A DNA stretch of 64,000 nucleotides, from IMG/VR virus record IMGVR_UViG_3300046810_000370, positions 1,891-65,890 of that record; one strand, given 5' to 3'. This document shows, in pieces, positions 3,168 to 63,577 of this stretch. Below the pieces are notes generated by a model, which was not told where the DNA came from, did no database searches, and saw nothing but the letters and a program-made list of their open reading frames with translations. Within the stretch, counting starts at the first letter, position 1, and each line of letters begins with the position of its first letter. Made by a program: the position numbers and the translations under genes. This DNA comes from a virus (lineage: Duplodnaviria > Caudoviricetes).

Positions 3168-3545
3168 TCAGGGGGTAGGACTTGGTGTTTCCGTCACCGT
3201 GACGGTCGGCCCCGGGGTCCTGACGTACTTCGTCTTGGCCGGCCGGGCGACACGAACGTATTCGGTGACCGTGGGCCCAGGTGTGTAATGCGTGACCGTG
3301 GGCCCGGGTACCTCCACAATGCGCGGTGTCGCGCTGTGCGTACTCGTGGGTGCGGAGGCATATCGCGTGACCGTGGCCACGGGCTGCGGGTTGGAATCCC
3401 CTTCGGTTCTGGAAGAATCCGACCGAGGATTCCCGGTATGAAGCCCGGCAGAACTCTGTTCGGGAATCATGGCAATTCCGATCGCCGGAACCGCGAGAAT
3501 TCCGATTGCGATCAGGGCCACCTTGGCCCGGTGAATTCCGGTCAT
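3168..3545 (-). CDS. membrane-anchored/secreted Thr/Pro-rich protein
   Basis: N-terminal hydrophobic helix, PGPTVT repeats; ATGA overlap with upstream gene. Confidence 0.65.
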   Translation of the reverse strand: MTGIHRAKVALIAIGILAVPAIGIAMIPEQSSAGLHTGNPRSDSSRTEGDSNPQPVATVTRYASAPTSTHSATPRIVEVPGPTVTHYTPGPTVTEYVRVARPAKTKYVRTPGPTVTVTETPSPTP

Positions 3546-3691
3546 ACCAGCACCGTGCCGAAGCCCTCGCAGGGGACGCAGTCTGCGCCCTCGCGGTCCT
3601 CCCCAGTGCCGTAGCACCGCTTGCACTCGATCTCCTCGGCCGCCTCTTCGCCGGCTTCGGCGGTAGAGGGCGCTTGCACGTCTACGCTCAT
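3542..3691 (-). CDS. small DnaJ-type zinc-finger protein (49 aa, not in ORF track)
   Basis: Manual translation: CKRCYGTG...CVPCEGFG (two CxxCxGxG motifs). Confidence 0.7.
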   Translation of the reverse strand: MSVDVQAPSTAEAGEEAAEEIECKRCYGTGEDREGADCVPCEGFGTVLV

Positions 3692-3703
3692 GAGAAGTAC
3701 TAA

Positions 3704-5242
3704 CTAACCTTCCTGGTTGATGTAAGTTGGTACATCGACGATTTCGGCATCAATGAAACCGGTGGACGCCTCGATCATCCGGTCCGCCGGAACGGGCCTG
3801 TCGAGTGCCGTCATCTGCTCGCCGGCATCGCGTCCGAAGATACGGCTGATCATACCGGCCCCGCCACCATTCCCCTTAGCCTCCAGTTTCACGGAGAAGG
3901 AATCCTGGGCGAGTTCCGTGCTGACCTTCACCAGTTTCTGGAGACGGTCGATCTCGTTGGACAGGTTCGGATCCGCGTAGCCGCCGGTCATATCCTCGAC
4001 CATCTTCATGAAGAAGACCCGCTGCGACTGCATCTCGATGAGCGAATTCTGGAGCGCCTGCATCTGCGGCTTGGTCTTCACTTCGACCGGGATGTCGTAC
4101 GCGCAGTTGGCATTCTGGTCGAAGGCCGGGCACTTCGAGGACAGGAAGCAGGAGCCACAGGCCCGCATGGACTGACTGCGGACCGTGAGGAGGGGGATGT
4201 CCCGCTCCTTGTTCACACCGTCCTCGGGGTCGGTGTAGACCTCCTTCTCCTGCACCAGGCCGATGACCGGCAAGTTGGTACGCGAGCGGTCCCTCCGGAC
4301 GGCCGGTGTTGATCCGGAGTTGAGCGTTTTTCCGTCCTCCGTATCAACTGGAGTGCCACCCATTTGAGAGAAACTCGAAAGTACTCCCGAACCGGAAGTA
4401 GTAACTTCCTGGGCCTCCTGCGGCCGGTGCTCGTCGATCGAGCCGGCCAGTTGCTGCCACGACCAGATGGTGAAGCGCAGGACCTCGTCGTTCTCCCCGG
4501 CCTCGATACGGTCGGCGTCGAATCCCGCGTCGGTGAATAGCATGCGGTGCCGCTTTCGCGCCTGGTCCTTGTACTTCTTCGGATAGCGCTTCAATTCCCG
4601 GCCGGTCCACACAATGGTGTCACCGTACTGGGAAGGGGAAAGCCAGGAGGTCGACGCGACGCTGTCCCAGTTAACAGCAGCCATTTCCGTCGGCTTAGTC
4701 ATTGCGACGCCGTGGAGCAGAGTGCCGTATTTCCGGGTGATCTCGTTGAGTACCGGCGTGAGATTACGGCCATCGAGATCCGTTTGCGTCACACCGACTC
4801 GCTTATACCTCTGGGCAAGCCTGTCGAGTTCGTCGACTCCCCATTCCGAATGCCATATCGGAAGGAACTTGTCTTCCGGCAGGTCCTCGTAGAAGTCCTC
4901 GCGCCGGGCCTCTATCCATTCCCGTCCGAGAACGACAGCGTCGAACTCGGACACCATATGAAGCGAATCGATGTTCTGCTGGACGAAGGCCTCGTAATGG
5001 GCCGCGATGTCCTTCAGTTCACCGATCGAGTACTTGTCGTCGTCGGCCTTGTTGACCGTGTAGGCGCCGGAGTCCAGGAACACCTTCTGGCTGTCGAGGT
5101 AGTTGTCCTCGATCAGCCAGGGTCGGGTGAACTTGGTGCGCCGGCGCAGGCCCATGTACGAGAGGGAGACGGTCTCGACGCCTTCCTCGGCCAGCATCTT
5201 GCGCCAGCCGGGAATCTCGGATCCGCCGAGGAAGAGGTGCAC
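3704..5242 (-). CDS. TGT/DpdA-like TIM-barrel protein with C-terminal Cys cluster
   Basis: VFLDSGAY, LPIWH, LLHGVA motifs resemble queuine tRNA-ribosyltransferase-like folds; CGSC-x5-C-x8-C. Confidence 0.55.
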   Translation of the reverse strand: MHLFLGGSEIPGWRKMLAEEGVETVSLSYMGLRRRTKFTRPWLIEDNYLDSQKVFLDSGAYTVNKADDDKYSIGELKDIAAHYEAFVQQNIDSLHMVSEFDAVVLGREWIEARREDFYEDLPEDKFLPIWHSEWGVDELDRLAQRYKRVGVTQTDLDGRNLTPVLNEITRKYGTLLHGVAMTKPTEMAAVNWDSVASTSWLSPSQYGDTIVWTGRELKRYPKKYKDQARKRHRMLFTDAGFDADRIEAGENDEVLRFTIWSWQQLAGSIDEHRPQEAQEVTTSGSGVLSSFSQMGGTPVDTEDGKTLNSGSTPAVRRDRSRTNLPVIGLVQEKEVYTDPEDGVNKERDIPLLTVRSQSMRACGSCFLSSKCPAFDQNANCAYDIPVEVKTKPQMQALQNSLIEMQSQRVFFMKMVEDMTGGYADPNLSNEIDRLQKLVKVSTELAQDSFSVKLEAKGNGGGAGMISRIFGRDAGEQMTALDRPVPADRMIEASTGFIDAEIVDVPTYINQEG

Positions 5243-5269
5243 GGTTGGGTACTCCGAATCAGGTTGGGG

Positions 5270-6070
5270 TTACTTGCGGGTGGTCGGCTGATCGGCCACG
5301 TAGCCCGGCGTGTTGGCCCTACGCGTGGCCGCGATCGAGAAGAGTGCCAACTCGGGAGACTTACGCGCGGCGCGAGGGGCGCCGGGAGCGGGCGGGGCGT
5401 TCTTTGTCCTCTGCTTGGGGGCCGGCGTGGCTGCGCGGGCGAACTGCTGCGGGTTGGTGGCCGCACCCGGAACGGCGAACGTCTCCTGGACCGGGGCCTG
5501 CGGCTTCGAAGCGGTCGGCGCAGGGGCGCTCCCTGGCTTGGGCCTGGAGAAGCCCTTCTGCTCATGCTGCGGCCGACCGTCGGTGTAGTTGCCCAGCGGC
5601 TTGAACTGCCATCCGGGGCGGCCTTCATGATCCGTCCAGCCGTCTTCACGGGCGGAGGGGTCGCCGGAGTGCGGCTTCGAGCCGAACGCGGCGTGGAAGT
5701 CGTCCCAGGCCCCGCCGGACGGCTTGCTCTGCGCCTGGATGCCGTTCATCCGGGCGTTGAAGGTATGAAGCAGGTCGGAGGCTGCACCGGAGTGCTGGGC
5801 GTGCCAGTTGTCCAGATCGGACTGATGGTCCTCGCCGACGCGCTTGATCTCTTCGCGGGCGGCCGGGCTGGCCGTCGGCTGGGCGGCCTGCTGGCCCTGT
5901 CCCCGTGTGCGGATCTTGATGCGGGGGTTGGCCGGCTGCTGGCCGTTGCGGGCGTTCTCCAGGTCGCTGACGCGGTCCTCGACGGATCGGTTGGAGCCGG
6001 GGAACTGGAGGGGGTTGAGGTATCGGGCCTTGAACTGGGTTGCTATGGAGTGGAAGACCGTGGCGCTCAT
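5270..6070 (-). CDS. hypothetical low-complexity protein
   Basis: ATG 6070 overlaps upstream stop; Pro/Ala/Gln-rich. Confidence 0.6.
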   Translation of the reverse strand: MSATVFHSIATQFKARYLNPLQFPGSNRSVEDRVSDLENARNGQQPANPRIKIRTRGQGQQAAQPTASPAAREEIKRVGEDHQSDLDNWHAQHSGAASDLLHTFNARMNGIQAQSKPSGGAWDDFHAAFGSKPHSGDPSAREDGWTDHEGRPGWQFKPLGNYTDGRPQHEQKGFSRPKPGSAPAPTASKPQAPVQETFAVPGAATNPQQFARAATPAPKQRTKNAPPAPGAPRAARKSPELALFSIAATRRANTPGYVADQPTTRK

Positions 6071-6863: not shown

Positions 6864-7718
6864 TCACCCGTGCCGGTGGTCGTGCAGGCCGTCCTTGTGC
6901 TCCTGCTCGTGGCGCCTGTAGTCCTGGTTCTGGTCGTGTGCCAGGAAGCGAGGGCTGACCCCGTGGGCTTGCATCAGGTGCTCGTGGATGGCGTCCAGGC
7001 CGGTGTTCTGCTTGATCTTCGGCTGGGCAGGGGTGTTCTTCTCGAACTGGTCGAGGTTCAGGACGTGCGCACCGACGTGGGTGTCTCCCCGGCCGCGCGC
7101 TTCGGCGAGGCGGTGATGTGCGTCGGCGACGTACGGCGTGCCGCCCTGGACGACGACCTTGACGTGCGGGTGGTCGGGGTCGAGCGGGCCGGTGATGTAC
7201 GAGTGGGAGCCGGTCTCGAACGCGGTCTGGCCGGTGTGCAGGACGGCGCTGGTGCTGATGCTCTGGAACTTGGCGTGCTTGTCCCAGAAGGCCTCGTTGC
7301 CGTGGCTCATCTGCGGGCCGTGCTTCTCGTACCACTTGTCGTCGATCTTGGTGTCGACGACGTTGCCGTGCCCGTCGAGGTGCCCGAACTGCTGCGGGTT
7401 GTGCGGCGGGCCCATGACCGTCTGCCCCTCGGACTGGGGGTAGTTGGTGCGCTCCTCGTCATGGATGAGCGTCTCGTCGCGGGCGGCGCCGAGCGAGGTG
7501 ACCTTGGTGAACATCCCGCCGCTGTGAGGCGTGGGATGCCCGATATGAAGCGCGCCGGGCTTGGCCTGGAGGTGCAGCGGCGTGTCCCGGGTCAGGTGGT
7601 ACTTCGCGCGGAGCGCGGTCTGCTTCTGGCCCTGGGCGGACACCTTGCTGCCCAGGGGGACGGGGAGCGCGGTCTGCTCGAACTGCGGGCCGGCCACGGC
7701 TGGCTTGGGTATGGCCAT
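6864..7718 (-). CDS. His-rich protein with ParB/Srx-like domain
   Basis: VKVVVQGGTPYVADAHHRLAEA resembles the ParB-N DGHHR motif. Confidence 0.55.
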   Translation of the reverse strand: MAIPKPAVAGPQFEQTALPVPLGSKVSAQGQKQTALRAKYHLTRDTPLHLQAKPGALHIGHPTPHSGGMFTKVTSLGAARDETLIHDEERTNYPQSEGQTVMGPPHNPQQFGHLDGHGNVVDTKIDDKWYEKHGPQMSHGNEAFWDKHAKFQSISTSAVLHTGQTAFETGSHSYITGPLDPDHPHVKVVVQGGTPYVADAHHRLAEARGRGDTHVGAHVLNLDQFEKNTPAQPKIKQNTGLDAIHEHLMQAHGVSPRFLAHDQNQDYRRHEQEHKDGLHDHRHG

Positions 7719-8788: not shown

Positions 8789-9178
8789 TCAGAGTTTGAG
8801 AGAAGCACGCAGTTGGGCCTCCTGGGCCTGCCGCTGCATTGCCTGCCCGACCATCATCATCTGCTGCTGGGTGCGCTGGGCCGTCTCCATGACGGTGAGG
8901 TCCTTCTGCACCACCGCGACCGCGCCGTAGATGTCGTCGGTGGTGGCGCCGCGCCGGGGGACGAACTGCTGGGTCAGGTCGGCGGTGGCGACGACTGCAC
9001 CATCGAGGCCGACCGCGACGAGGAACGCCGTGGTGACCGGGGTGCCGACCTCGTCCTCGCCGGGCGGGTGCTCGTCCGCCATCTTGGCGAGGGCCTCACG
9101 CTGCTCGGGCGTGAGGTCGTCGGTATGAAGCGCGTCGGCGGGCTTGGCGGGGGTCTGGCCGAGGATCGGGATGCTCAT
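8789..9178 (-). CDS. hypothetical protein
   Basis: 129 aa ORF with GGAG RBS. Confidence 0.7.
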   Translation of the reverse strand: MSIPILGQTPAKPADALHTDDLTPEQREALAKMADEHPPGEDEVGTPVTTAFLVAVGLDGAVVATADLTQQFVPRRGATTDDIYGAVAVVQKDLTVMETAQRTQQQMMMVGQAMQRQAQEAQLRASLKL

Positions 9179-9708: not shown

Positions 9709-10293
9709 TCAGTACCAGTTAGTGGCCTGGGAGTGTGCCCAGGCGGCGCAGGGAGTCCCGTATACCGCCTTGATGTATCCGAGTCCCCATCGTATCTGGG
9801 TTATTGCATTGGTTTCCCAATCGGAACCGGCGGAGGCGTATTTCGAAGCGGGGAGGGCTTGGGCAATTCCGTACGCGCCGGAGGTTGGGTTGGTGGCGTT
9901 GACCCGCCAGTTGGATTCCTTCTCCCACAGCGGTTCGAGGCAGCGGAACTGTGTGGCGCCGACCTGGGCGAGGGCGTAGGCCTTGGGGTTGGTCGGTGCG
10001 GCCGTGGTGCGCGCCGGCTGGGGTGTCGGTCGCGGCCGTTTCGTGTGTTTGGGCTGTTGGGACGGGGTGGCCTTCTTCGAGGCCTGGGTATGAAGCGGAC
10101 GGGGTTTCGGTGGCTGGTAGGTGAGCGCTGGACGCGTCTCGGACCGGTTGGCGGTGTCCGGCGTCGTGCGGCTGACCGTGGGGAGGGCCGTGTCCTTGAC
10201 CGTGGCGGCCGGGCCGCTGCCAGCGATGGCAGAGACGGCGGAAGCCGTAACCAGGAGTGTGGCTGCGGCTGTTACGCCGAGGTGGTATCGCAT
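9709..10293 (-). CDS. secreted lytic transglycosylase (SLT/Rpf-like)
   Basis: Signal peptide; CLEPLWEKESNW...SGAYGIAQALP...QIRWGLGYI...YGTPC. Confidence 0.85.
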   Translation of the reverse strand: MRYHLGVTAAATLLVTASAVSAIAGSGPAATVKDTALPTVSRTTPDTANRSETRPALTYQPPKPRPLHTQASKKATPSQQPKHTKRPRPTPQPARTTAAPTNPKAYALAQVGATQFRCLEPLWEKESNWRVNATNPTSGAYGIAQALPASKYASAGSDWETNAITQIRWGLGYIKAVYGTPCAAWAHSQATNWY

Positions 10294-10385: not shown

Positions 10386-11249
10386 TCACGCCTTGACGGT
10401 GAACAGGCCGCTGTCCTTGGCCAACTTCGTCAGGGACTCCAGGCCCGGCGCACCCTTCGCGGCGTCGCCCTTGTAGCCCTTCTTCGCCCGGTACAGGTCG
10501 TACGCGGTGTCGGTCTTGCTGCCCCACGAGCCGTCGACCCACTTCGCGTCGAGGTAGCCCAGGGCCGACAGTGCGTGCTCGACGAGCAACACGTCCGCCT
10601 TGTGGGTCACATGGCCCGTCGCGGCCGGCAGGTCCTTCTTGCGGGCCTCGACCACGTTGGACAGGTCGACGACCGGATTCGGCTTCGGGGTGGGCTTGGG
10701 CTTGGCCGGCTGCGCCGGCGAGGTATGAAGCGAAGGGTTCTGCGACTTCCACGCCGGGTCGGCCGACTCGATGCCGCCGTCGTAGACCGGGTAGCCGTAG
10801 CCGTACACGTGCGGATCGTTCCGCAGATGGGTCTTCGAATAGGTCCCGTCGCCTTCGGGGGAGCCATTCGCGTTCGTGTTGCCTTCCACCGAGAACACGT
10901 GAGTCGCGTCGAATCCGATGACGACGCCGGTGTGCTCTCCACCGCCCGGACCGTAGAAGATTTGCGCGCCGATGGCGGGATAGGTGGAAAAACGCTTCCG
11001 GGTCTTGTACCAGGTGACGCCGGTCGCGCACGACGCGGTGACCGGGTAGGAGCCCTTCGGCAACTTCGCCGTCTGGAAGGCCCACGCCGCGAACACGGCG
11101 CACCAGGCGCCCTCGACGTTGTCGACCCATTCCAGGCCGGGAACCTGGTCGGCGTACTTCTCGTGGTTGTTCCAGTGGCCGCCGGAATAGCCCTCGTGGT
11201 ATCCGACCTCGGCCTTTACGACCTTGGCGAGGGTATCGGTTATCGACAT
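10386..11249 (-). CDS. endolysin, CHAP-type amidase plus peptidoglycan-binding domain
   Basis: AWCAVF, HTGVV, VEGNT CHAP motifs; C-terminal VDGSWGSKT PG-binding-like. Confidence 0.85.
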   Translation of the reverse strand: MSITDTLAKVVKAEVGYHEGYSGGHWNNHEKYADQVPGLEWVDNVEGAWCAVFAAWAFQTAKLPKGSYPVTASCATGVTWYKTRKRFSTYPAIGAQIFYGPGGGEHTGVVIGFDATHVFSVEGNTNANGSPEGDGTYSKTHLRNDPHVYGYGYPVYDGGIESADPAWKSQNPSLHTSPAQPAKPKPTPKPNPVVDLSNVVEARKKDLPAATGHVTHKADVLLVEHALSALGYLDAKWVDGSWGSKTDTAYDLYRAKKGYKGDAAKGAPGLESLTKLAKDSGLFTVKA

Positions 11250-11961: not shown

Positions 11962-13221
11962 TTAGAACAACTTCTGCTGGCCCGTGTGGGGCTCGGTATG
12001 AAGCCCGTTGCCCTTGCCGTAGGTGTTCAGCGAGGAGTCGTGGTTGTCGCCACGCCGCCGCTTCTCCTCCGACCACTGCGCGGACTGCATGTTGGTGAGG
12101 CTGTTGAGGCCCCGCTCGCCCATGACGTTCCGGGCGACGTGGTCATGGAAGGCGTGGATGCCCTTGATTCCCATGTAGGCCTGCTGACTTCCTGGACCCT
12201 TCTTGTCCTCCAGGTGCGGAGCGAACGCGCCACCGCCGGAGTGCGTGTCAGACACCCAGAACTGCGAGGAGCCGTGGGGGTCAACCCACGAGTTGTGGTA
12301 GGCCCCGACCTTCTCGCCGGCCGTCGGCTTCCACGCGTCGGACAACTTCTCCCCACCCATGACCTTGTGGGTCACGTCGATGGCGAGCGAGTGGTTACGC
12401 GGGTAGCCGTTGACGGGGTAGGCGCGGGTGTCGCCCTCCTTCTTCTCCAACTGCGTGAACTGCTTGCCGTTCCTCGCGGTGACCGTCTTCTCGACCTTGT
12501 CCTCGCGCGGGACGTAGTAGTCCGGGTGGTGCTCGTACTGGGTGCCGGTCTTACCGGACTTGGCCCACTGGATCGCGTGGCTCGCGGCCTGGTCGTTGGG
12601 GTAGACCGCCTTGCCCGTCACCTTGTCCGGCCGCACGAAGACGTTCTGCGGGGACGTGATGGCGTTCGCGGCAGCCTGCACGCCGAAGGGGACGCCGTTC
12701 TCCTTCGCCGACGTCTTCAGACGTGCACGCGGGCTCAGGGAGCCGTCACGGGTGTGGTCATCGGCCGGGCTGTAGAACGAGTCGTGGTGCCCGCCCTCGT
12801 GGGCATAGGCACGGTCGACCTGGGCCGCCAGCGCGCGGTGTGCGGAGTCGGGCGTCACACCGAACTTGGCTGCCGAGCGCAGCACACGGGTCTGCTCGGC
12901 CGGAGTGTGGTCCTCCCACCGCCTGTTGACCGGCATCATGTCCCGGGTGGGGTTCATGGTGTGCTGGCCGTGCCAGACGTCAGAACCTTCCGGGCCCGAC
13001 AGTTCCATCTGACCGTGCAGGTTCGGCGCCTTGTCCGTGTTGCCCATCAGCCGGTACGACTGCTTGGCGTTGTGGCCGGCGCCGGGCTGGTCCTGGATGG
13101 TCTTGAACCGCTCGGGGTTGGCCGCCTCGAAGGACTCCCGCTTGCCGGCGGCGTCCTTGACTGTCTTGTTGTAGGCGCGAGTGTCCGCTGCCTTCTGTGC
13201 GGGTGTCTTGCCTGCGGCCAT
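11962..13221 (-). CDS. hypothetical protein, possible HhH-glycosylase-like domain
   Basis: AITSPQN, GEKVGAYHN, WVSDTH, QSAQW spacing resembles phage HhH-GPD-like proteins. Confidence 0.45.
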   Translation of the reverse strand: MAAGKTPAQKAADTRAYNKTVKDAAGKRESFEAANPERFKTIQDQPGAGHNAKQSYRLMGNTDKAPNLHGQMELSGPEGSDVWHGQHTMNPTRDMMPVNRRWEDHTPAEQTRVLRSAAKFGVTPDSAHRALAAQVDRAYAHEGGHHDSFYSPADDHTRDGSLSPRARLKTSAKENGVPFGVQAAANAITSPQNVFVRPDKVTGKAVYPNDQAASHAIQWAKSGKTGTQYEHHPDYYVPREDKVEKTVTARNGKQFTQLEKKEGDTRAYPVNGYPRNHSLAIDVTHKVMGGEKLSDAWKPTAGEKVGAYHNSWVDPHGSSQFWVSDTHSGGGAFAPHLEDKKGPGSQQAYMGIKGIHAFHDHVARNVMGERGLNSLTNMQSAQWSEEKRRRGDNHDSSLNTYGKGNGLHTEPHTGQQKLF

Positions 13222-15468: not shown

Positions 15469-16067
15469 GCGAAGGCCAGGATCTCCCTGACCTTGGTATG
15501 AAGGTCTTCGAGGGTGCCGTCGTTGACCAGGCGCGCGTCGAACCACTTGTCCGGCAGGGGCTTCTCCGACTTGTGGCCGTTGACGGCGCCGATGCCGGGC
15601 CGCTCGATCTTGATGAGCAGGCCGAGGCGGGAGTCGATGGCCTGGTGCTCGTTCTCGAACCGCAGGTCGGTGAAGACGTACTTCTTGTCCTTGTCCAGGC
15701 CCTTGAAGGCGGCGTCGACCCACACGTTCTGGTCGATCATCTCGCGGCCGACCTCGGTGCCGATGACCTGGAGCATGCGGCGGATCTCGGGGTACTTCCG
15801 CTTGGCCTCTTCCCAGCCGAGATCATCGACGATGTCCTGGATCCGGATGTAGTCGCCGTCCGCGTCGGTGAGGACGACGGGGTTGAGGACGTACAGGGCC
15901 TCGCGGAGTTTGTCGGCGAAGGCGACGCGGGTGTACCCGTAGTCCCCGAGGATCTTGGCGACGCTGTCCTTGCCGGCGCCGGCGTATCCGTGGAGGCCGA
16001 CGAACTGGGGGAGCCAGGACTCGATGATGTCGTGGCCGTCGATGGTGAGGTCGGTGGTGGTGGTCAC
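15465..16067 (-). CDS. deoxynucleoside monophosphate kinase
   Basis: GYAGAGKD P-loop, FADKLR, RRMLQVIGTEVGR, TDLRFENE. Confidence 0.85.
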   Translation of the reverse strand: MTTTTDLTIDGHDIIESWLPQFVGLHGYAGAGKDSVAKILGDYGYTRVAFADKLREALYVLNPVVLTDADGDYIRIQDIVDDLGWEEAKRKYPEIRRMLQVIGTEVGREMIDQNVWVDAAFKGLDKDKKYVFTDLRFENEHQAIDSRLGLLIKIERPGIGAVNGHKSEKPLPDKWFDARLVNDGTLEDLHTKVREILAFA

Positions 16068-17324: not shown

Positions 17325-18019
17325 TTGGCGGCGGCCTTGCTCTTGGGCTGCTCGTCGTTCTTGATCGTGGCCTTGAAGTAGGTACCGGACGCGTCGTGGT
17401 AGGCGACGACACCCTCGGGGTCCTTGAAGCCGGGAGCGATGAAGGAGCCTTCCGACTCCAAGGTATGAAGCGCAATATTGACGGAGTAGTTCAGGTCCTG
17501 GCCGTTGGAGACGAGGATGACCGGGACCACGGTGACCTCCGGCGGGGCCGGGACGGCCTTGGGGAAGGTCGCCAGGTAGTTGTCGTTGACCTCGGTGTCG
17601 CGGATGTCGTACCAGCGGGACGTGTTGAAGAGCGCGAAGCGCTTCTCGTCGAGCCCGTATCCGGACTGGATGCCCTGGCCGAACCACTCGCCGTAGTGCT
17701 TGCCCTCGCCGAGCGCGGTGAGGGCGTCGGCGTTCTCCGACACCCACTGGGCGAAGCCGAAGTTGTCGTCCTCACGGGTGATCCAGCGGTTGCGGCTACC
17801 GGCGCGGACGATGAACGGGTCGTCGTTGACGTCGAAGGCCACGATGCCGTTCTTCTCGTCGTCGGTCAGGTTCTCGACGGCCTTCGTGTCGGCGACCTTG
17901 ATGATCTCGACCAGGCCGTTGGTGCCGTTCACCTTCTCGGTGAGGACCACCTTGCGGTGCAGTCGCGGGATGGGGCGGAACTTCGGGTAGGTGGGCGTCT
18001 CGGTGACCGTGGCAGTCAT
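17321..18019 (-). CDS. RNA ligase (Rnl2-like nucleotidyltransferase domain)
   Basis: TEKVNGTN motif I, SRNR, YGEWFG, FALFN, EGVV, FK. Confidence 0.8.
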   Translation of the reverse strand: MTATVTETPTYPKFRPIPRLHRKVVLTEKVNGTNGLVEIIKVADTKAVENLTDDEKNGIVAFDVNDDPFIVRAGSRNRWITREDDNFGFAQWVSENADALTALGEGKHYGEWFGQGIQSGYGLDEKRFALFNTSRWYDIRDTEVNDNYLATFPKAVPAPPEVTVVPVILVSNGQDLNYSVNIALHTLESEGSFIAPGFKDPEGVVAYHDASGTYFKATIKNDEQPKSKAAAK

Positions 18020-20216: not shown

Positions 20217-20554
20217 CACGGCAGTATCTCCTCGGCGTCCATTTCCGGATGCGCCAAGGCATGAAGCGCCAGGAAAGTCTCTTCGGACATCGTGATCCAG
20301 TTTCTTCCACCGGACATCTGAGTCCCGAAGAGCATTTCCCTGCCATCGATCAGGGCCTGCTTCTCTGCGGTAACCAGTTCCTTTTCCTTGAGCGAGTACG
20401 ATCCCTTACTGGTGACCTTGTACTCGATCGAGTAATCCGGAGTGCGTACGTCGTTCTTCCGCACCCAACCGTTGCCGCTACCCGCGTTCACCGTCCCGCC
20501 GAGGAGTTCCGCTCCCCGCCGTTCCTGCTTCTGGCTCTTCTTCAACATGTCCAT
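20213..20554 (-). CDS. Holliday junction resolvase-like PD-(D/E)xK nuclease
   Basis: SQKQERR...GSG...KNDV...IEYK. Confidence 0.65.
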   Translation of the reverse strand: MDMLKKSQKQERRGAELLGGTVNAGSGNGWVRKNDVRTPDYSIEYKVTSKGSYSLKEKELVTAEKQALIDGREMLFGTQMSGGRNWITMSEETFLALHALAHPEMDAEEILPW

Positions 20555-20687: not shown

Positions 20688-21871
20688 CAGGCGGCCAAAG
20701 TATGAAGCCCGTCGGCCTCTTCCGGCTTGGGCCGCCGGCTGACCTTCTTGGTGCCCTCGTTCTCGGCGGCCGTAAGGTCGTCCTCGGAAATGGAACGCTC
20801 GTCGGCGTGCTGAGACGCGGCGAGGACCTTCTCGTAGAGGAATTCCTGGAGGTCCAGATCCTCTCGGATGGCAGCGAGGGTGTTCTCCTTGCTGTGCCAG
20901 CGAAGGACAGGCTTTCCCTTGTCGTCGTACTCGCCGTTGTCGACCTCGTAGTAAGCGCCCTTGCGCTTGATGACGTCGAAGAGGATTCCCATGATCATGA
21001 TTTCCTTCGTGGTGTCGAAATCACCACGGGCGAAATTCAGATAGGGGGCCGAGCGGAAGTAGGCGTCGATGGTGGCGACCTGCTGCGGTGCGGCCGACTT
21101 GTTCTTGATGGTCTTCACCTTGATGACCTGGCCGACGTTCACCTTGCCCTTTCCGGGCCGGGCTTCCTGAATCCACTCGTCGCGCCGGACTTCCACCCGG
21201 GTGTAGAACGCGTAGTTCTTTGCATTTCCACCGGGCGTCGTGGTCGGCGTGCCGTGCGGGGAGAACTTGCCGATGGCGTCGCGGTACTGGTTGATGACGA
21301 TGCCGAGCATGGGGCGGTCGTCGGGGTCGGTCATCGAGCGCTTCGTCGCGGCGCCGGACTTGCGGAAGAACTTGCCGGTGAGGCGGGCGCCGAGGGCCAT
21401 GGTGGCCTCGTCCATGTCCTTCTCGGCTTCCTCGTCCGGGATGAGCGCCGGGTAGGAGTCGAGGACGATCATGTCGACCGAGCGGGACGTCGCGAAGTCG
21501 AGCATGGTCTGGTAGGCGAACTCCATGGCCTGGGTGGGGACGACGATGACGCGGTCGTTGTCGACGCCCAGCGCCTCGGCCTGGTCGGTGTCGTAGTGCT
21601 CGGCCGCGACCCACAGGCAGGTGAAGTTCGGGTCCTTCTTCTGGTTGGCGGCCAGCGTCTTGTAGACGATGAAGGTCTTGCCGTGGGACTCGCGGCCGAT
21701 GACCTCGACCCACTGGTTGCCCGGCCAGCCACCGCCGAGGGCGATGTCGAGGGAGAGGGAGCCGGAGGTGAAGCGCTTGGCGACGCGCATCTCGGAGGCG
21801 AAGCAGACGGCGCCGGGGTGCGCCTTGTTGATCTTGGCGAGGAGTGCGAGGGCTTCCTTGTTGACGCTCAA
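20687..21871 (-). CDS. recA: RecA-like recombinase
   Basis: TSGSLSLDIALGGG, GRESHGKT Walker A, IVLDS, INQYR, TTPGGNA. Confidence 0.93.
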   Translation of the reverse strand: MSVNKEALALLAKINKAHPGAVCFASEMRVAKRFTSGSLSLDIALGGGWPGNQWVEVIGRESHGKTFIVYKTLAANQKKDPNFTCLWVAAEHYDTDQAEALGVDNDRVIVVPTQAMEFAYQTMLDFATSRSVDMIVLDSYPALIPDEEAEKDMDEATMALGARLTGKFFRKSGAATKRSMTDPDDRPMLGIVINQYRDAIGKFSPHGTPTTTPGGNAKNYAFYTRVEVRRDEWIQEARPGKGKVNVGQVIKVKTIKNKSAAPQQVATIDAYFRSAPYLNFARGDFDTTKEIMIMGILFDVIKRKGAYYEVDNGEYDDKGKPVLRWHSKENTLAAIREDLDLQEFLYEKVLAASQHADERSISEDDLTAAENEGTKKVSRRPKPEEADGLHTLAA

Positions 21872-21900
21872 CAGGGGCCCCCGTAGGTATGAAGTCGCAT
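21868..21900 (-). CDS. 10-codon leader ORF MRLHTYGGPC coupled to recA
   Basis: AGGAG RBS, ATG, in-frame CTT-CAT-ACC, TGA overlapping recA TTG start. Confidence 0.6.
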   Translation of the reverse strand: MRLHTYGGPC

Positions 21901-24393: not shown

Positions 24394-24843
24394 TCAGACG
24401 GTGCCGTCGGCGCGGATGATCGTGCCGGGCTTGTAGTTGCTCCGGCCTCCCGCTCCCCCACTCGCGGTCTGCTTGGCCGGGGTCGACGGGGTCGACTTGT
24501 CTCCGGACGGCAGTCCTGCGGTGGTCTGGGTGAAGCGGGGGTTGTAGCCGCACGTGTAGCACTGGGCCATGGCGTTGGGATGGCCGTGGGGCTTGAAGTA
24601 CTCGCCGCCCTGGCAGTCAGGGCAGCGGGTGTCCTGCTTGGCCACCATGGCGCGGGCCGGCGCGCGGCCCTCGGTATGAAGTGGCACTGTCTGCTCGGGC
24701 TGCTGCTGGGTGGGGTAGGGCTGCTGCCCGGAGGCCCACCAGGGGGTGTTGGTCTGCTGCTGGGGCGCCGGCGCGGCGGCCGGGGCCGGGGCGGCCGGTC
24801 GAGCGGCCCCGCCTCCCAGTTTGTTGGCCCAGAAGTTACTCAC
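24394..24843 (-). CDS. zinc-ribbon hypothetical protein
   Basis: CPDC...CYTCGY; GTG start 24843. Confidence 0.65.
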   Translation of the reverse strand: MSNFWANKLGGGAARPAAPAPAAAPAPQQQTNTPWWASGQQPYPTQQQPEQTVPLHTEGRAPARAMVAKQDTRCPDCQGGEYFKPHGHPNAMAQCYTCGYNPRFTQTTAGLPSGDKSTPSTPAKQTASGGAGGRSNYKPGTIIRADGTV

Positions 24844-39458: not shown

Positions 39459-39480
39459 GCTTGTCCTTACGGGTTCGTGG

Positions 39481-59586: not shown

Positions 59587-60401
59587 CAGAAGCCCCATCC
59601 GCCGTAGATGGGCGAGGGCACCCCGGACTCGTCGTCGTTCTGGTGGCCGGGGCCGATGGGCGGGAGCACCCGCTGCGGCAGGGAGTGGTCGTCGTACTCG
59701 CGCTCGCGGAAGATGGGCACGAGCCGGCCGGTCGTACGCGAGACACGGCGGAGGTTGGTGACCTCGATCGAGTACAGGCCGACGCCCAACTTCTCGCACA
59801 GCGTCTTGTACCGCTCGGTGAGCATGCCGATCTGAGTCTGGATCTGAGCGAAGCGCTGGCCCCGGTCGACGGACGTGCCGTCGGAGGTCTGCACGTTGAT
59901 GTCGGTCGCCGCGTCCGTGGACAGTGCCCACATGGCTTCGGTCGTGGCCAGCAGGACGACCAGCGCGTCCTCCTCCGGCGGCAGGTTGTCGACGCCGACC
60001 GGTGCCTCGTCGTACCTGATGAAGCCGTTGCTGTCCTTGTACCGGGTGGAGATGGTCCGGCCCCGGTTGTGCTGGGCGACGGCGTCGTTGATGTAGATGT
60101 CCAACTCATCGTCGGAGAACAGGCCGTAGGACGCGCCGGACACCAGCAGCAGCGCATCGAGCGCCAGCGGCTGGGTCAGGTCGAGGATCCCGTTCAGTTC
60201 GTCCAGGACGAAGTCGGTGGGGGTGCTCAGCGTGGTCTGCGAGCCCCCCGAGATATGAAGCACTTCCACGCCGGTCACGTTGTTCGCGCTCAGTTCGTAC
60301 TGAACGACGTCCCCTGTGCCCCGGATGGTGTCGCGGAACGGCTGGAGCCGGTCGCCCAGCTCGCTGCGTACCCGCGTCCGCAGGTCTTCGAGAGTAGCCA
60401 T
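59586..60401 (-). CDS. head-tail adaptor-like protein
   Basis: LRTRVRSELGD...FSDDEL..Y pattern. Confidence 0.6.
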   Translation of the reverse strand: MATLEDLRTRVRSELGDRLQPFRDTIRGTGDVVQYELSANNVTGVEVLHISGGSQTTLSTPTDFVLDELNGILDLTQPLALDALLLVSGASYGLFSDDELDIYINDAVAQHNRGRTISTRYKDSNGFIRYDEAPVGVDNLPPEEDALVVLLATTEAMWALSTDAATDINVQTSDGTSVDRGQRFAQIQTQIGMLTERYKTLCEKLGVGLYSIEVTNLRRVSRTTGRLVPIFREREYDDHSLPQRVLPPIGPGHQNDDESGVPSPIYGGWGF

Positions 60402-61597: not shown

Positions 61598-61634
61598 AGG
61601 GGAGCGGTCCTGGTAATCCAGAAACCGCTCCCCT
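61598..61634. terminator. stem-loop downstream of capsid gene
   Basis: AGGGGAGCGGT...ACCGCTCCCCT. Confidence 0.7.
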
Positions 61635-61691
61635 AACCTTCAGGATCGCGTGACCGCGAATACCAACTAAGCCATCAGACAGGCTGAGAGA

Positions 61692-62678
61692 TTAGTTGGT
61701 CTCCGCGATCAAAACGGCCTGGTCCGTGATCAGGCCGAGGCCCCAGATCGCGTACCACGCGAGCGCGTGCTCTCGTCCGAAGTCGAGGATGCCGCCGTCC
61801 CGCAATTCCACCGGGAGGGAGATCGCGTGGCCGAACGCATTGTCGCCCAGGAAGATCGACTGGTACACCGTCTTGCTGGTGGCGTTGGTGACCTGCTTGA
61901 CCTGCGTGGTCTCGATGAAAACCACGTCGTTGAGGCGGCCGATTTCGCCGAGCATGAAATTGCCGGGGGCCGCGTACTTGGTGACCTCAATGAATTCGGG
62001 ATCATCGCGCAACTTGCGGCTCTGGTGCGGGTGAACGAAGCAGACATAGGTCTCGCCCAATCGCGGGACATTCTTCGTCGCCAACGTCTCGACCGCGTCC
62101 TTGACGAGCGCGGAAGTGAAGTGGAACGTGCCGTCCAGGGAATCCGTGGACGTGCCCGCAGTGCCCGAAGAGTAGACACCCATGCCGGTCTGCGCGCCGA
62201 CGGTGGCGTACTTGTTGTAACCCCAGATCTTCGAGGAGGCCTGGAGCAGGGTGTCCCTCGCGGACTGATCCAAGTAGAGAGCCATGTTGCGTCCGAGCAG
62301 GCGCGATGCGCTCGCCATGACGTCGTCGAAGGACGCGTTCAGGAGCAACTCGGAGACGGCGACGGCGTAGCCGTGCTCGGCCACGGTGATGGAGAACTGC
62401 GAGGCCGACAGAGCGTTGGTCTGCATCCGGACGCCTTCGACCAACTGCGAGGCGGCACCCAGGTTGTTGTAACGCATGAAGTTGATCGTCAGACCAGGCT
62501 GAACGCCCAACTCCGTCTTCTTCACAGCGAACTGTTCGAAGCGAAGAATCGGCATGGACTGGAACAAGATTTCCTTGCTCCAAATGGTCTGGATGGCCGC
62601 ACCGAGGGTGCTGTTGGCGCCCGAGTAGTTCGTCGGAGAAGCCGACAGGTTCGGGGTACCAGTGATCGCGCTTGGCAT
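61692..62678 (-). CDS. major capsid protein (N4-gp56-like family)
   Basis: LRFEQFA, TINFMRY, LVEG, HPHQ, GEIGRL..V.FIET. Confidence 0.9.
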   Translation of the reverse strand: MPSAITGTPNLSASPTNYSGANSTLGAAIQTIWSKEILFQSMPILRFEQFAVKKTELGVQPGLTINFMRYNNLGAASQLVEGVRMQTNALSASQFSITVAEHGYAVAVSELLLNASFDDVMASASRLLGRNMALYLDQSARDTLLQASSKIWGYNKYATVGAQTGMGVYSSGTAGTSTDSLDGTFHFTSALVKDAVETLATKNVPRLGETYVCFVHPHQSRKLRDDPEFIEVTKYAAPGNFMLGEIGRLNDVVFIETTQVKQVTNATSKTVYQSIFLGDNAFGHAISLPVELRDGGILDFGREHALAWYAIWGLGLITDQAVLIAETN

Positions 62679-62713
62679 ACTTGGATTTCCTTAGTTACGG
62701 GTACTCGACCGAA

Positions 62714-63577
62714 TTACGAGTACAGACCACGCTGGTTCTGGGCTGCCTGACCGACGCCCAACTGGCCCCGAATCTTGGCGTACTCCGACATCGGCATGTC
62801 GCGGAGGTCAGTAAGGGAGTACGACTTGTGTCCCGGATCAGAGTCCATAGGTCCGGTGGTGGAATAGCCGGTGGGGCTCACACCACGCATGGAGGCACGC
62901 TGCTGAATAGCGGCCTGCTGGACCGATTCCAGAATAGCGGCTGTCTTCGCCTTGGCTGTAGCGATGGAGTGCTCGACCTCGTCCGGCGTATTACCGGAAA
63001 CGTAGTCGAGAAGTTCGGGAGCGATATTCTCGTTCTCCTCGCCGACGCGCTTCTGGATGTACGTCTGGAGGTTGTTGAACTCCTGCTCCTTGGCGAACAG
63101 GGTGCGCTCCTGCTCCCGCTCGCGCTCGAACTGCTCGAAGCGGGAGGTCCACTCCTGCTCCTTCTGCGCGAGAAGGTCCTTCGCGGACATGTCCTGCTCG
63201 GCCAGCGAACGGGCCTGAGCCTCCACGTCCTTGAGGCGCTGCTCCTCGACGGCCTGCGCGGCCTCGCGGGCCTTGCGCTGCTCTTCGATCTCGGCGAGGA
63301 AGCGGTGGTTCTGCTCCTCGATCTTCGAGATCTTGCCGTACAACTTGTCCTTCTCTTCCTGCCGAGCGCGCGCGATGTCCTCGGCGGAGAACCGGGGTTC
63401 GGCAGGGGCCTGCGTGGCGGGCGGCTCGACGACAGCGGCCGGCACAACGATGACGGGATCGCCACCTTCACCGGGCTGCGGAGCACCACCTGCGATGGGG
63501 AAGATCGGACGGCCATCCTTGCGGTGGCCAAGTACGGTCTGAGCGGGCAGCGATATGCCCTGGGTATGAAGCGACAT
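62714..63577 (-). CDS. capsid scaffolding protein
   Basis: Coiled-coil, RQEEKDKLY; directly upstream of capsid; start MSLHT. Confidence 0.75.
   Translation of the reverse strand: MSLHTQGISLPAQTVLGHRKDGRPIFPIAGGAPQPGEGGDPVIVVPAAVVEPPATQAPAEPRFSAEDIARARQEEKDKLYGKISKIEEQNHRFLAEIEEQRKAREAAQAVEEQRLKDVEAQARSLAEQDMSAKDLLAQKEQEWTSRFEQFEREREQERTLFAKEQEFNNLQTYIQKRVGEENENIAPELLDYVSGNTPDEVEHSIATAKAKTAAILESVQQAAIQQRASMRGVSPTGYSTTGPMDSDPGHKSYSLTDLRDMPMSEYAKIRGQLGVGQAAQNQRGLYS

Follow-up and report, generated by a model that had tools for sequence, protein, structure and literature searches.

The word CTTCATAYY, or a one-letter variant of it in sister phages, was found to be private to a temperate myovirus of Streptomyces (~105 kb) and its relatives, with an orientation that follows the genes and a reading frame that is always Leu-His/Asn-Thr/Ile. 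Tentatively, and with confidence just short of even, it is interpreted as an RNA-level signal that depends on the phase of translation and is read by a lineage-specific factor. The pattern points to a control signal not previously described; no description of such a frame-locked word was found in the literature searched.

Occurrence and orientation of the word

The window, i.e., the whole stretch of DNA analysed, comprised 64,000 bases of a 65,890-base record (CheckV completeness of the record, 66%). A temperate lifestyle was indicated by encoded serine and tyrosine recombinases and by a related prophage in Streptomyces. CTTCATAYY had 32 exact matches in the window, ending in ACC (23), ACT (5), or ATC (4), whereas 100 dinucleotide-preserving shuffles of the window gave a mean of 0.34 and a maximum of 2. 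All 32 were confined to the minus strand (plus strand, 0), which is the coding strand for all likely genes (GC3 and Pfam matches), and the strand lock claimed in the first-pass annotation was thus borne out. Of the 34 copies counted there, the 32 exact ones with their endings and a GCC variant were recovered, but no ATG variant within one mismatch was present in the window. Its term “genome-wide” has to be qualified for a record of this completeness; complete relatives had 35–42 sense copies and one copy on the other strand each. That most genes carry one copy was only roughly true, with a spread of 6 copies over the structural part (~25 kb) and 26 over the replication part (~39 kb). The copies were:

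63563..63571, minus: CTTCATACC, codons 3-5 (M-S-L-H-T) after RBS-led ATG 63577; ORF end 62714
60252..60260, minus: CTTCATATC (L-H-I), within ORF ending 59586, no Pfam match
56129..56137, minus: CTTCATACC, codons 5-7 (V-A-N-D-L-H-T) of T4_baseplate-family gene 55286-56149
52242..52250, minus: CTTCATACC, NlpC/P60 + SLT tail protein gene 52086-55148, 54 codons before stop
52069..52077, minus: CTTCATACT, 10-codon ORF MNRLHTWAAE (52054-52086), TAATG overlaps with both neighbouring genes
49339..49347, minus: CTTCATACC, 1421-aa gene 45586-49851
39144..39152, minus: CTTCATATC (L-H-I), ORF frame 38919-39734
37556..37564, minus: CTTCATACC, 429-aa ORF 37301-38590
37165..37173, minus: CTTCATACT, 15-codon ORF MAISLHTYRFLGVAE (37138-37185), TGA overlaps GTG start (37141) of HTH_36 gene
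35955..35963, minus: CTTCATACC, ORF 35379-36038
35177..35185, minus: CTTCATATC (L-H-I), ORF 35147-35389, starts 12 codons before stop
34444..34452, minus: CTTCATACT, DnaB-like helicase gene 33439-34704
32602..32610, minus: CTTCATACC, DnaG-type primase gene 32260-33219
32231..32239, minus: CTTCATACC, codons 8-10 (M-P-Y-N-K-R-R-L-H-T) of small ORF from ATG 32260
29680..29688, minus: CTTCATACT, ORF 29458-29943, no Pfam match
28760..28768, minus: CTTCATACC, ORF 28409-28870
28018..28026, minus: CTTCATACC, ORF 27367-28362
27236..27244, minus: CTTCATACC, codons 14-16 of family-A DNA polymerase gene 25304-27283; A-type orthologous copy reads L-N-T
24673..24681, minus: CTTCATACC, ORF frame 24394-24918, upstream of reductase gene
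23775..23783, minus: CTTCATACC, B12-type ribonucleotide reductase gene 22404-24461
22932..22940, minus: CTTCATACC, second copy in the same reductase gene
21886..21894, minus: CTTCATACC, 10-codon ORF MRLHTYGGPC (21868-21900), TGA overlaps recA TTG start (21871)
20699..20707, minus: CTTCATACT, recA (20687-21871), starts 6 codons before stop
20258..20266, minus: CTTCATGCC, one-mismatch copy, probably decayed, frame 0 of ORF 20213-20632; full in relatives
17462..17470, minus: CTTCATACC, ORF 17321-18019
15495..15503, minus: CTTCATACC, ORF 15465-16166, starts 12 codons before stop; orthologue matches dNMP kinase family
11995..12003, minus: CTTCATACC, ORF 11962-13221, starts 13 codons before stop
10722..10730, minus: CTTCATACC, ORF 10386-11249
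10087..10095, minus: CTTCATACC, ORF 9709-10293
9122..9130, minus: CTTCATACC, codons 17-19 of ORF 8789-9178
7542..7550, minus: CTTCATATC (L-H-I), ORF 6864-7745
5762..5770, minus: CTTCATACC, ORF 5270-6235
3435..3443, minus: CTTCATACC, ORF 3168-3626

A second CTTCATGCC starts at 32785, where GC3 puts it in another frame than the word. In 7/7 genomes that include the region, the other-strand copy of the relatives precedes the tyrosine-recombinase gene by 134–160 nt. G2 and G5, the two genomes inspected closely, have this copy in frame, close to the N-terminus of a small ORF in the sole divergently transcribed unit, before the serine integrase. The word follows gene orientation.

Reading frame and codon controls

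All 32 copies were open in the frame CTT-CAT-AYY (Leu-His-Thr/Ile), GC3 clearly favouring that frame at 25; the remaining 7 lie in tiny ORFs or a few codons from an RBS-led start, and are in frame there. Among 348 sense copies in 10 genomes, 269 had a clear GC3 call for frame 0, and the distinct contexts of the other 79, inspected singly, were consistent with frame 0, lying at ORF ends or in tiny ORFs; the sole exception was one off-type CTTCATATT in an A-type genome (see below). Synonymous-codon shuffles of 63 called genes predicted 0.33 copies in frame 0, 0.02 and 0 in the other frames, and 0.12 in antisense, compared with 24 observed in frame 0. One apparent frame-1 copy in these genes arose from an overlong gene call spanning a leader mini-ORF.

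Codons were counted in 19 sure genes (10,309 codons). CTT (35, of which 11 in the word) and CAT (25, 11 in the word) were rare next to CTG (373) and CAC (149), while TCA (12) and ATA (18) were as common as CAT (14) and CTT (24) outside the word; by this arithmetic, the frame xxC-TTC-ATA would outnumber the observed one about 20-fold. Where a native L-H-[TI] was available, the word was present in 104/121 distinct contexts, compared with 0/14 for frame-1-compatible and 0/10 for frame-2-compatible peptides (three leader-ORF loci set aside). The frame lock is therefore not a by-product of codon usage or peptide tolerance. The word arises by synonymous change of native Leu-His-Thr and also by amino-acid replacement, and where no gene is available, it is borne by tiny ORFs with their own ribosome-binding site. 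Constraint reaches beyond any single codon (-1 R, AYY, +10 K, +12 G), giving a span of about 13 nt. Of 40 copies examined in the host genome, none was sense CTT-CAT-AYY; 7 were sense xxC-TTC-ATA, 12 were antisense, and 21 were unclear. The first-pass annotation had described a single reading frame, disfavoured CTT and CAT codons, and a coexisting normally coded CTG-CAC-ACC (seen unconverted in the window); all three descriptions agreed with these data.

Joint exchange of the word between two lineages

Close relatives carried either CTTCATAYY (C-type) or CTTAATAYY (A-type, Leu-Asn-Thr/Ile), with no real mixture in any genome, and about 30 orthologous copies switch jointly between the two forms. 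From one lineage to the other, His and Asn replace each other, but CTT, xAT, and AYY stay fixed, which confirms the earlier proposal that the constraint is on nucleotides. Since L-H-[TI] tripeptides numbered 25–39 in C-type but 2–4 in A-type genomes (the reverse for L-N-[TI]), the sites were made at a cost to the proteins. The frame was tested independently by the C-type lineage only, as CTTAATAYY gives a TAA when read in frame 1 and TTA-ATA when read in frame 2.

A co-varying RNA leader hairpin

Ahead of an HTH/RNA-repair operon, the word was followed directly by a stop codon in 8/8 genomes, and so supplied the final three sense codons of an ORF. It ends differing long ORFs in five of them and, in the other three, tiny RBS-led ORFs whose preceding codons are unrelated (MKTIRLHT*, VRRLNT*, VVRLNT*). 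The conserved leader consists of three hairpins, in the first of which MAUACC(U) is paired with the anti-word (R)GGUAUK over a 6–8-nt loop, the variable pair being C-G in 5 C-type and A-U in 3 A-type genomes; two more helices follow 3′ of it, one covering GAGAGG and AUG, so that the ribosome-binding site and start codon of the next gene are hidden. In the leader alignment, 93.9% of cells were paired versus 31–51% with partners slid, and 7 two-sided pair changes were observed versus 2.6 in shuffles (0/500 shuffles reached the observed value). Whole-collection scans returned the cognate pair in 10 known C-type and at least 4 known A-type contigs, and neither of the two mixed pairs among clade contigs recognisable by name. 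A hairpin that contains the word and co-varies with it argues for the RNA level. Its anti-word spans 6–7 nt only and does not account for CUU; the hairpin occurs at this one locus, no general cis anti-word having been found beyond it, and the gene strand has no full anti-word except opposite the single reversed copy.

Search for a reader

No reader of the word was identified among the genes scanned for co-variation, nor was a repressor co-varying with it. The best co-varier among metagenome contigs, a 64-aa protein, failed in the Streptomyces prophage, which combines C-type words with an A-like allele; second in line was the primase, which is a DNA enzyme. In most gene trees, all A-type genomes fall into a single clade; hence there was one switch event only, and co-variation cannot single out a gene. 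The suggested RelE/BrnT-like effector (29458-29943) and the TGT/DpdA-like gene (3704-5242) were both without a Pfam match.

Interpretation

In the tentatively preferred interpretation, R-CUU-MAU-AYY (M being C in this phage and A in the sister lineage) would be a cis-acting signal on the phage’s own mRNAs that works only when the ribosome reads it in phase. A lineage-specific trans-acting factor that matches the variable base, most probably one encoded by the phage, would arrest or cut the ribosome–mRNA complex once CUU occupies the P site and MAU the A site. A cut-and-repair scheme is conceivable, since the RNA heal-and-seal enzymes PNKP, Rnl1-type ligase, and RlaP are encoded behind the word-bearing leader. 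About forty cistrons, mostly early and replication genes, would then be tied to one lineage-specific key, a device suited to prophage silencing, superinfection immunity, or timed shut-off. Nucleotide constraint, orientation, frame lock, and RNA hairpin partly support the translation-level reading given in the first-pass annotation; cleavage, stalling, and a codon gate would be steps beyond them. A gate of the bldA/TTA kind consists of a single codon and is unsuitable, because the constrained positions fall outside any one codon. To our knowledge, a ribosome-dependent reader with 10–13-nt specificity has no precedent; the constrained flanks and AYY degeneracy look like plain nucleic-acid recognition rather than decoding, and copies near ORF ends (about one third, at both termini) would be expected of any imposed nucleotide site.

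Recognition of the single-stranded, AU-rich word by a lineage-specific RNA-binding protein, small RNA, or endoribonuclease, with frame secondary, is considered unlikely, although the sense-strand lock, the orientation that goes with the genes, the co-varying hairpin, the predicted unpaired state of the word in RNA (0.69 vs 0.39 at control positions), and its enrichment near starts (5/32 copies vs 2.5% background) are in its favour, and -1 R and the final Y-Y are the degeneracies that G-U wobble permits with a guide GGUAUKAAGU. Frame could then follow, for example, from quick ribosome clearance, as only frame 0 consists of three NNY codons, for which G34 tRNAs are abundant; at TCA or ATA, as in the other frames, ribosomes would linger on the site. 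Clearance predicts a bias, however, not 0/24 versus 104/121, and frame is kept even by tiny ORFs rebuilt from unrelated sequence; the missing full anti-word and the partial cover of the word by the cis anti-word also count against it.

It is also doubtful that a monomeric immunity repressor binds the word as an asymmetric double-stranded site and blocks elongation in an orientation-dependent manner, as at stoperators, with C and A as two immunity specificities and frame due to some coding constraint. The temperate lifestyle, the 35–42 asymmetric sites in a single orientation relative to transcription, the ~13-nt span, and the lineage-specific variants would fit, and Cluster A stoperators have the same traits (PMC9283540, PMC6550527); a 17-kb accessory block without copies in relatives would fit as well. 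According to the former publication, stoperators sit in promoters and short intergenic spaces, whereas 29/32 copies of the word are within ORFs of more than 60 codons. The frame lock is left unexplained by codon use or peptide tolerance, and no word-co-varying repressor emerged from the scan. At the leader, the inverted partner covers only part of the site at variable spacing; an RNA hairpin therefore suits better than a DNA operator.

That the DnaG-type primase starts lagging-strand primers at the word on the displaced sense strand, its zinc-binding domain reading the variable base, is very unlikely. For forks travelling in the direction of transcription (as in rolling-circle replication, for example), all copies would be on the template of the lagging strand, median spacing in the replication part is ~1.2 kb, and the primase has the most C/A-separating positions (27/318, 17 of them in residues 1-133 around the zinc ribbon), its A-type forms grouping as a clade (100/100) with a long branch (0.23). 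Many other genes, however, likewise distinguish the two types by a single change on the tree; known DnaG and T7 priming sites are 3–5 nt long, copies are absent over 10 kb of the window and over 17 kb in relatives, the reversed copy goes with a reversed gene, and frame, tiny ORFs, and the RBS-hiding leader are left without reason.

A short linear peptide motif (degron, docking, or processing site) in many phage proteins is scarcely credible, for although every copy is translated as L-[HN]-[TI], often at termini or in linkers, codons are fixed as CTT and xAT where CTG/CTC and CAC/AAC dominate elsewhere, unconverted CTG-CAC-ACC tripeptides stand alongside, flanking wobble bases are constrained, His and Asn swap at once in all orthologous copies, and copies occur in ORFs of 8–15 codons.

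Word counts, strand, and reading frame in the window

The word CTTCATAYY, which encodes Leu-His-Thr or Leu-His-Ile when read as CTT-CAT-AYY (henceforth frame 0; frames 1 and 2 are the other two phases, frame 2 being xxC-TTC-ATA), occurred 32 times in the 64-kb window (23 copies ending in ACC, five in ACT, and four in ATC), always on the minus strand, compared to a mean of 0.34 and a maximum of 2 copies in dinucleotide-preserving shuffles of the window. No further copies were found on either strand of the entire record (65,890 bases, rated 66% complete). The minus strand was also the strand of every likely gene in the window, as determined by GC3 periodicity and Pfam hits, and no tRNA genes were found in the window. 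The Pfam-matched genes were:

Minus strand: tail sheath, baseplate J, T4-type baseplate protein, and capsid
Minus strand: family-A polymerase, B12-type ribonucleotide reductase, RecA, DnaB, DnaG-type primase, and SNF2 helicase

The frame CTT-CAT-AYY was open at 32 of 32 copies. GC3 was unambiguous for this frame at 25 of them, and the other seven were likewise in frame 0, being located either a few codons after a start led by a ribosome-binding site (RBS) or in tiny open reading frames (ORFs). The first-pass annotation, which had described the motif as locked to one strand and one frame, was thus correct in its word counts and coordinates (32 exact copies, all sense and all in frame 0), and the codon-shuffled control that it had proposed predicted 0.33 frame-0 copies, whereas the called genes contained 24. 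ORFs of more than 60 codons contained 29 of the 32 copies, and the three intergenic copies were within tiny ORFs of 10–15 codons:

MNRLHTWAAE
MAISLHTYRFLGVAE
MRLHTYGGPC

The stops of all three tiny ORFs overlapped the start of the next gene, whose first possible start was 3′ of the word. Copies were enriched near starts (5/32 at most 16 codons after a start, background 2.5%) as well as near stops (7/32 with a stop at most 14 codons away, background 3.5%), and were positioned 3′ of starts or deep in genes. Their density differed along the window, with 26 copies in the replication part (~39 kb) and 6 in the structural part (~25 kb), and neighbouring copies were 173 to 10,195 nt apart. An extended RBS word, (C)TAGGAG(T), was present 8–10 nt before several starts (window positions 63592–63598, 56165–56171, 37203–37209, and 21916–21922, minus strand, approximate).

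Related phages and host background

No close relative was found among GenBank phages at the DNA level. The nearest isolates (BRock, LuckySocke, Alone3, GiJojo, and pSt2308; 47% sheath identity) are without the word (50 kb of BRock contained a single copy and no 8-mer of comparable strand asymmetry), and more distant metagenome relatives (PolA 67%, sheath 40–50%) had 0–1 copies and no obvious replacement word. Related contigs in IMG/VR numbered about 100, four of which were complete (105–110 kb with terminal repeats), and a prophage relative (G011) was present in Streptomyces sp. NPDC002088. Beyond the span of the window, the relatives encode a large serine recombinase that constitutes the sole divergently transcribed unit, a tyrosine recombinase, an RlaP nucleotidyltransferase, an Rnl1-type RNA ligase, PNKP, an Lsr2-like protein, MazG, a helix-turn-helix (HTH) protein, and tRNA genes. 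The phage is a temperate Streptomyces myovirus.

The 10.7-Mb host genome of Streptomyces sp. NPDC002088 contained 89 copies of the word, 47 of which were in the prophage-bearing stretch of one contig. The remaining 42 copies (~10.6 Mb) were scattered over both strands, and the reversed-word control yielded 21. The word is private to the phage. It resembles Chi in being short, orientation-dependent, and over-represented, but Chi is enriched in the host chromosome, and the host counts rule out a Chi-like host word. Within the relatives, the word was absent from a 17-kb block (related genome G2, oriented 68408–85480; locus L109 and the end of locus L108), whose ORFs are without Pfam hits and patchy among relatives. 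This block looks accessory; it may be a recent acquisition or be expressed from the prophage.

Two forms of the word

Across 99 related loci, CTTCATAYY (C form) was found 254 times on the gene strand and six times on the other strand. Many close relatives (polymerase 89–92% identical) had no C-form copies and carried CTTAATAC(C) instead, i.e., the A form CTTAATAYY (Leu-Asn-Thr/Ile), at equal density and with an equal strand lock. Sense/antisense counts were 42/1, 39/1, 41/1, and 35/1 in C-type genomes and 39/1, 28/1, 33/1, 31/0, and 28/0 in A-type genomes, and whole records were essentially pure in word form, with one or two off-type copies.

The orthology table grouped 348 copies from 10 genomes into 72 site groups. 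In about 30 groups, CTTCATAYY in C-type genomes corresponded to CTTAATAYY at the same position in A-type genomes, with interchange of His and Asn. Opposite C-only sites, the A type has CTG-CAC-ACC or CAG-CAC-ACC, and opposite A-only sites, the C type has CTG-AAC-ACC or CTG-AAC-GCC. Since type-specific copies face ordinary coding sequence, copies were made in place, by synonymous T changes or by amino-acid replacement, instead of being inserted. Leu-His-Thr/Ile tripeptides numbered 25–39 per C-type genome versus 2–4 per A-type genome, and the reverse was true for Leu-Asn-Thr/Ile; hence, most copies came at the price of protein changes. The A type formed one clade (100/100) nested among C types in the primase tree, and a single change was also needed in most other gene trees. 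We read the trees as indicating one switch, from C to A.

Two minor observations concern individual sites. At window positions 11995–12033 (minus strand) and in the orthologues, two word positions are 24 nt apart; the A type has the word at both, the C type only at the second, with native CTG-AAC-ACC at the first, and in prophage G011, which is C-type, the first position is occupied by an A-form copy and the second by a C-form one. One C-form copy (...PLLHTAPTDE...), located 5′ of a KTSC-domain gene, was kept in nearly every A-type locus at the same place as in C-type genomes (related genomes G6, oriented 57753, and G2, 104839; loci L167–L175).

Origin of the frame lock

Codon usage was taken from 19 sure genes (10,309 codons). 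Outside the word, TCA (12) and ATA (18), on which the other two frames depend, were as common as CAT (14) and CTT (24), and only TTA was near-absent (2 codons). Multiplying codon frequencies by hand resulted in about 0.003 expected chance copies in frame 0, 0.002 in frame 1, and 0.06 in frame 2, i.e., frame 2 should dominate by chance. The host background confirmed this expectation: among 40 copies examined, 7 were sense xxC-TTC-ATA, 12 antisense, 21 unclear or non-coding, and none sense CTT-CAT-AYY. Peptide tolerance was assessed over distinct contexts in six C-type genomes. Native Leu-His-Thr/Ile was encoded by the word in 104 of 121 contexts, and the word was borne by 0/14 frame-1-compatible peptides ([ASPT]-S-Y-x) and 0/10 frame-2-compatible peptides (x-F-I-[FLSP]), after setting aside three apparent hits in each of these two frames, which represent three leader-ORF loci where the next gene can first start 3′ of the word. 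Opportunities to place the word in the other frames without protein change are left unused, whereas frame-0 copies arise at protein cost. The frame lock of the C form is forced neither by codon use nor by peptide tolerance.

In the A form, the frame would be forced anyway, owing to TAA in frame 1 and TTA-ATA in frame 2. About 20 C-type-specific site groups were also in frame 0 throughout, which means that the lock is not explained by descent from an A-form ancestor. Many out-of-frame or antisense copies, or a lack of enrichment over codon shuffles, either of which would speak against a frame-locked word, were looked for and not found.

Extent of the word and the reversed copy

Flank constraints were measured over 104 representative copies and gave a constrained span from −1 to +12. 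Purines occupied position −1 in 85% of C-form and 80% of A-form copies, though C is the commonest third base; the first base 3′ of the word was T or G, and the third was G in 59–67%. The third codon was ACC, ACT, or ATC, and the few orthologous copies with ACG, ATA, or GCC look like decay or tolerated variants. Pair frequencies around the word equalled shuffled ones, i.e., no helix closing directly around it was detected. There was also no general anti-word in cis (nine cognate 6-mers 3′ of 393 copies, eight of them at a single leader locus) and no guide in trans (RRTATKAAG was on the gene strand only opposite the single reversed copy).

Exactly one other-strand copy was present per genome that includes the integrase region, 134–160 nt 5′ of the tyrosine-recombinase gene in 7/7 genomes. 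Detailed reading of two genomes placed it in frame, 7–12 codons from the start of the small ORF at the head of the reversed integrase unit; the N-terminal sequence of this ORF differs between the two. As the reversed copy belongs to a reversed unit, the word follows gene direction and not one DNA strand. A further reversed copy in prophage G011, CTTCATATT, may have arisen by chance.

A structured RNA leader containing the word

In the relatives, one copy of the word is part of a structured leader just 5′ of the operon for the HTH protein and the RNA-repair enzymes, the latter adjoining the tRNA cluster 3′ of this word-bearing leader:

L108:18671–18782 (locus of related genome G002, outside the window), minus strand: structured leader, ~100 nt, with orthologues in seven other genomes
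L108:13038–17184, minus strand: RNA heal-and-seal set of RlaP-family nucleotidyltransferase, Rnl1-type RNA ligase, and PNKP (kinase and HAD phosphatase)

At this locus, the word constituted the last three sense codons before a stop in 8/8 genomes. It ended different long ORFs in five genomes and tiny RBS-led ORFs in three (MKTIRLHT, VRRLNT, and VVRLNT, each directly followed by the stop), the upstream codons of which are unrelated. The reverse complement of word positions 4–9 (anti-word) followed 3–5 bases past the stop and was GGTATG in five C-type genomes and GGTATT in three A-type genomes. Folding of a 117-column alignment with RNAalifold predicted three elements: a word:anti-word helix of seven pairs with a loop of 6–8 nt containing the stop codon; a GC-rich helix with five compensatory pairs; and an element that pairs GAGAGG and the next gene's AUG, covering the ribosome-binding site. 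Paired cells on this structure amounted to 93.9% versus 31–51% with partners slid, and seven pairs were changed on both sides versus 2.6 in shuffles (0/500 shuffles reached seven). Rfam contained no family for the leader, the only match being a chance miRNA (E 0.74).

Scans of the whole viral collection recovered cognate word/anti-word pairs in 10 known C-type and at least four known A-type contigs. Mixed pairs occurred in none of the contigs recognisable as clade members, which were judged by known contig names and two spot checks, as most of the scan hits were unrelated AT-rich phages. With a loop of varying length and an anti-word that covers only part of the word, this arrangement suits an RNA hairpin better than a DNA operator. 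The word:anti-word helix would be melted by a ribosome terminating at the stop codon within its loop.

Interpretation and comparison with known systems

Only a ribosome-dependent factor recognising the word (its reader) directly explains the frame, and a translation-phase-dependent RNA signal is therefore ranked first among the readings considered, albeit tentatively. The first-pass annotation had placed the word on translated mRNA, which agrees with the frame, the tiny ORFs, and the RNA leader; regarding the cleavage or stalling that it proposed, we only infer which event takes place at the word, be it arrest, masking, or cutting with subsequent repair. A specific version, which we consider possible but doubtful, is a translational barcode, in which the ribosome and a lineage-specific phage factor jointly read a three-codon RNA word in phase. 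Some forty phage messages would then need one matching key to be translated or to survive, and the one-base C/A switch would set two mutually blind specificities, moving immunity or timing control to translation instead of transcription. PNKP, the ligase, and RlaP might re-seal messages cut at the word.

Reading of the word in phase on translated mRNA, if true, would constitute a new layer of phage gene control, in which a genome-wide cis code with exchangeable specificity is superimposed on protein-coding sequence at measurable protein cost. It would also represent a new way of silencing prophages, establishing heteroimmunity, or shutting off early genes in Streptomyces, and could be developed into an orthogonal, portable expression switch for high-GC bacteria. 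The system is testable because lysogens are available in culture collections, e.g., the C-type prophage in Streptomyces sp. NPDC002088. Even if a rival reading applies, two features are undescribed in the literature searched, namely the strictness of the frame lock and the joint change of one base at about 30 orthologous sites; that literature contained neither the word (literal matches were primers and the like) nor any frame-locked dispersed word in phages.

Among systems that act during translation, bldA in Streptomyces ties a set of genes to one factor through one TTA codon and one dedicated tRNA. The word shares the host genus and the principle that rare in-frame codons would tie genes to one factor, but has three codons and flanks fixed, with CAT or AAT as the middle codon depending on lineage, and CTT, CAT/AAT, and AYY codons are read by ordinary G34 tRNAs. 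The analogy to a bldA/TTA-type codon gate, drawn in the first-pass annotation, does not hold for 9–13 fixed bases that span more than three codons and a lineage-dependent middle codon. RelE, YafQ, and HigB are ribosome-dependent nucleases, and RelE-type enzymes cut only in-frame A-site codons with a specificity of about one codon. Their targets are comparable to the word in its frame lock (348 copies, 10 genomes), and the phage lineage encodes PNKP and an RNA ligase, which can repair RelE- as well as MazF-type ends; the word, however, spans 10–13 nt. Programmed frameshifting was rejected, as R-CTT-CAT-A does not match the slippery heptamer X XXY YYZ (−1), and a +1 shift, with re-pairing of CUU, would be possible only on the UUC of the C form, the A form having UUA instead. 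Identity with the start-associated sequences of Cluster K mycobacteriophages, which are directly 5′ of start codons and overlap the ribosome-binding site, was ruled out by the location of the word copies 3′ of starts or deep inside genes.

An RNA site read independently of the ribosome would account for the orientation and the hairpin, but does not directly explain the frame, and we regard it as unlikely. MazF-type interferases recognise RNA words of 3–7 nt whose distribution defines the regulon, and cut independently of frame, whereas the word is tied to frame. No gene for a RelE-superfamily or MazF-type nuclease was recognised among 70 ORFs scanned.

A DNA-level site (for a repressor, priming, or nicking) would cover the strand and orientation lock, the lineage switch, and the temperate context, but leaves the frame, the rebuilt tiny ORFs, and the RNA leader unexplained. 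The stoperators of Cluster A mycobacteriophages are described as more than 20 asymmetric 13-mers, oriented with transcription and bound by a monomeric repressor, whose consensus tracks repressor divergence and differs between related phages along with immune specificity (PMC9283540, PMC6550527), and which are located in promoters and short intergenic spaces (PMC9283540). This network (L5 gp71-type repressor sites) is the nearest described system in the literature searched, as both involve a temperate actinophage and more than 20 asymmetric words of ~13 nt with one orientation to transcription and a lineage-specific form. The phage has 32 copies in the window and 35–42 in complete relatives, together with integrases and a prophage, and all copies are sense, the single reversed one being in a reversed transcription unit. 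Unlike stoperators, the word lies almost entirely inside ORFs and in one reading frame, the between-gene copies are translated by tiny ORFs, and one copy belongs to a co-varying RNA hairpin. No repressor matching the word was found among the genes scanned. A stoperator-like DNA site is given a low probability.

A priming signal is improbable, although the single-strand lock would fit and the primase best separates both word types. T7 GTC-type primase sites and RSF1010 ssiA/ssiB are likewise strand-specific dispersed words with kilobase spacing (DnaG-type sites typically have 3–5 nt), but have no link to reading frame or translation. The fixed rare codons and the His/Asn swap leave practically no room for a peptide motif.

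Candidate readers

Every ORF of one complete genome was compared across C-type versus A-type genomes, and then across many more loci. Pfam searches on 70 ORFs yielded no RelE, MazF, sigma, or repressor candidate except one HTH_17 protein, which failed to separate the word types. Two ORFs named in the first-pass annotation, a RelE/BrnT-like effector (29458–29943) and a TGT/DpdA-like ORF (window 3704–5242, minus strand), matched no Pfam family at E-values up to 0.05 and 0.01, respectively. The 139-aa protein after recA (20213–20632) retained two fixed positions, one of which was the word itself; the dNMP kinase likewise fell away; and the 10 fixed differences of a 96-aa protein fell to three separating positions. 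The co-variation scans returned no repressor-like gene, the best being the primase and a small protein that was later rejected:

L108:7296–7490, minus strand: 64-aa protein (family P0001–P0032), found only in these phages and Streptomyces prophages

The two allele groups of this protein differ sharply and track word type in metagenome loci (11 of C type and 9 of A type, 20 in total). Its AlphaFold model (pLDDT 83.6) shows a helix between the third and the last of four strands. It was rejected as the reader since the C-type Streptomyces prophage G011 has the A-like allele.

A tRNA gene was also associated with word type:

G2 oriented 95196–95281 (within L108; also in L156–L166 and the G011 prophage): 86-nt tRNA(GTG)

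It follows tRNA-Asn and has an encoded G-1 opposite C73, a long variable arm, and a body resembling tRNA-Leu. It was present in 10/12 C-type records (two C-type phages are without the gene) and 0/9 A-type records, and every record with the tRNA cluster has Pro(TGG), Phe(GAA), Leu(CAA), and Asn(GTT). The association of tRNA(GTG) with the CAT form, which rests on two loss events at most, is suggestive of a decoding link.

The top remaining candidate was the DnaG-type primase, whose residues did not overlap between types at 27 of 318 positions, 17 of these being in the first 133 residues around the zinc ribbon, followed by the HTH_36 replication protein (21/335 type-separating positions). Since most genes place the A type in a single clade, the co-variation of both proteins with word type points only weakly to either as a possible reader. 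The A-type primase (gene at window 32260–33219, minus strand) is on a long branch (0.23 changes per site), and the adjacent DnaB gene is 94–95% identical between some C-type and A-type genomes, which points to a recombination break between both genes.
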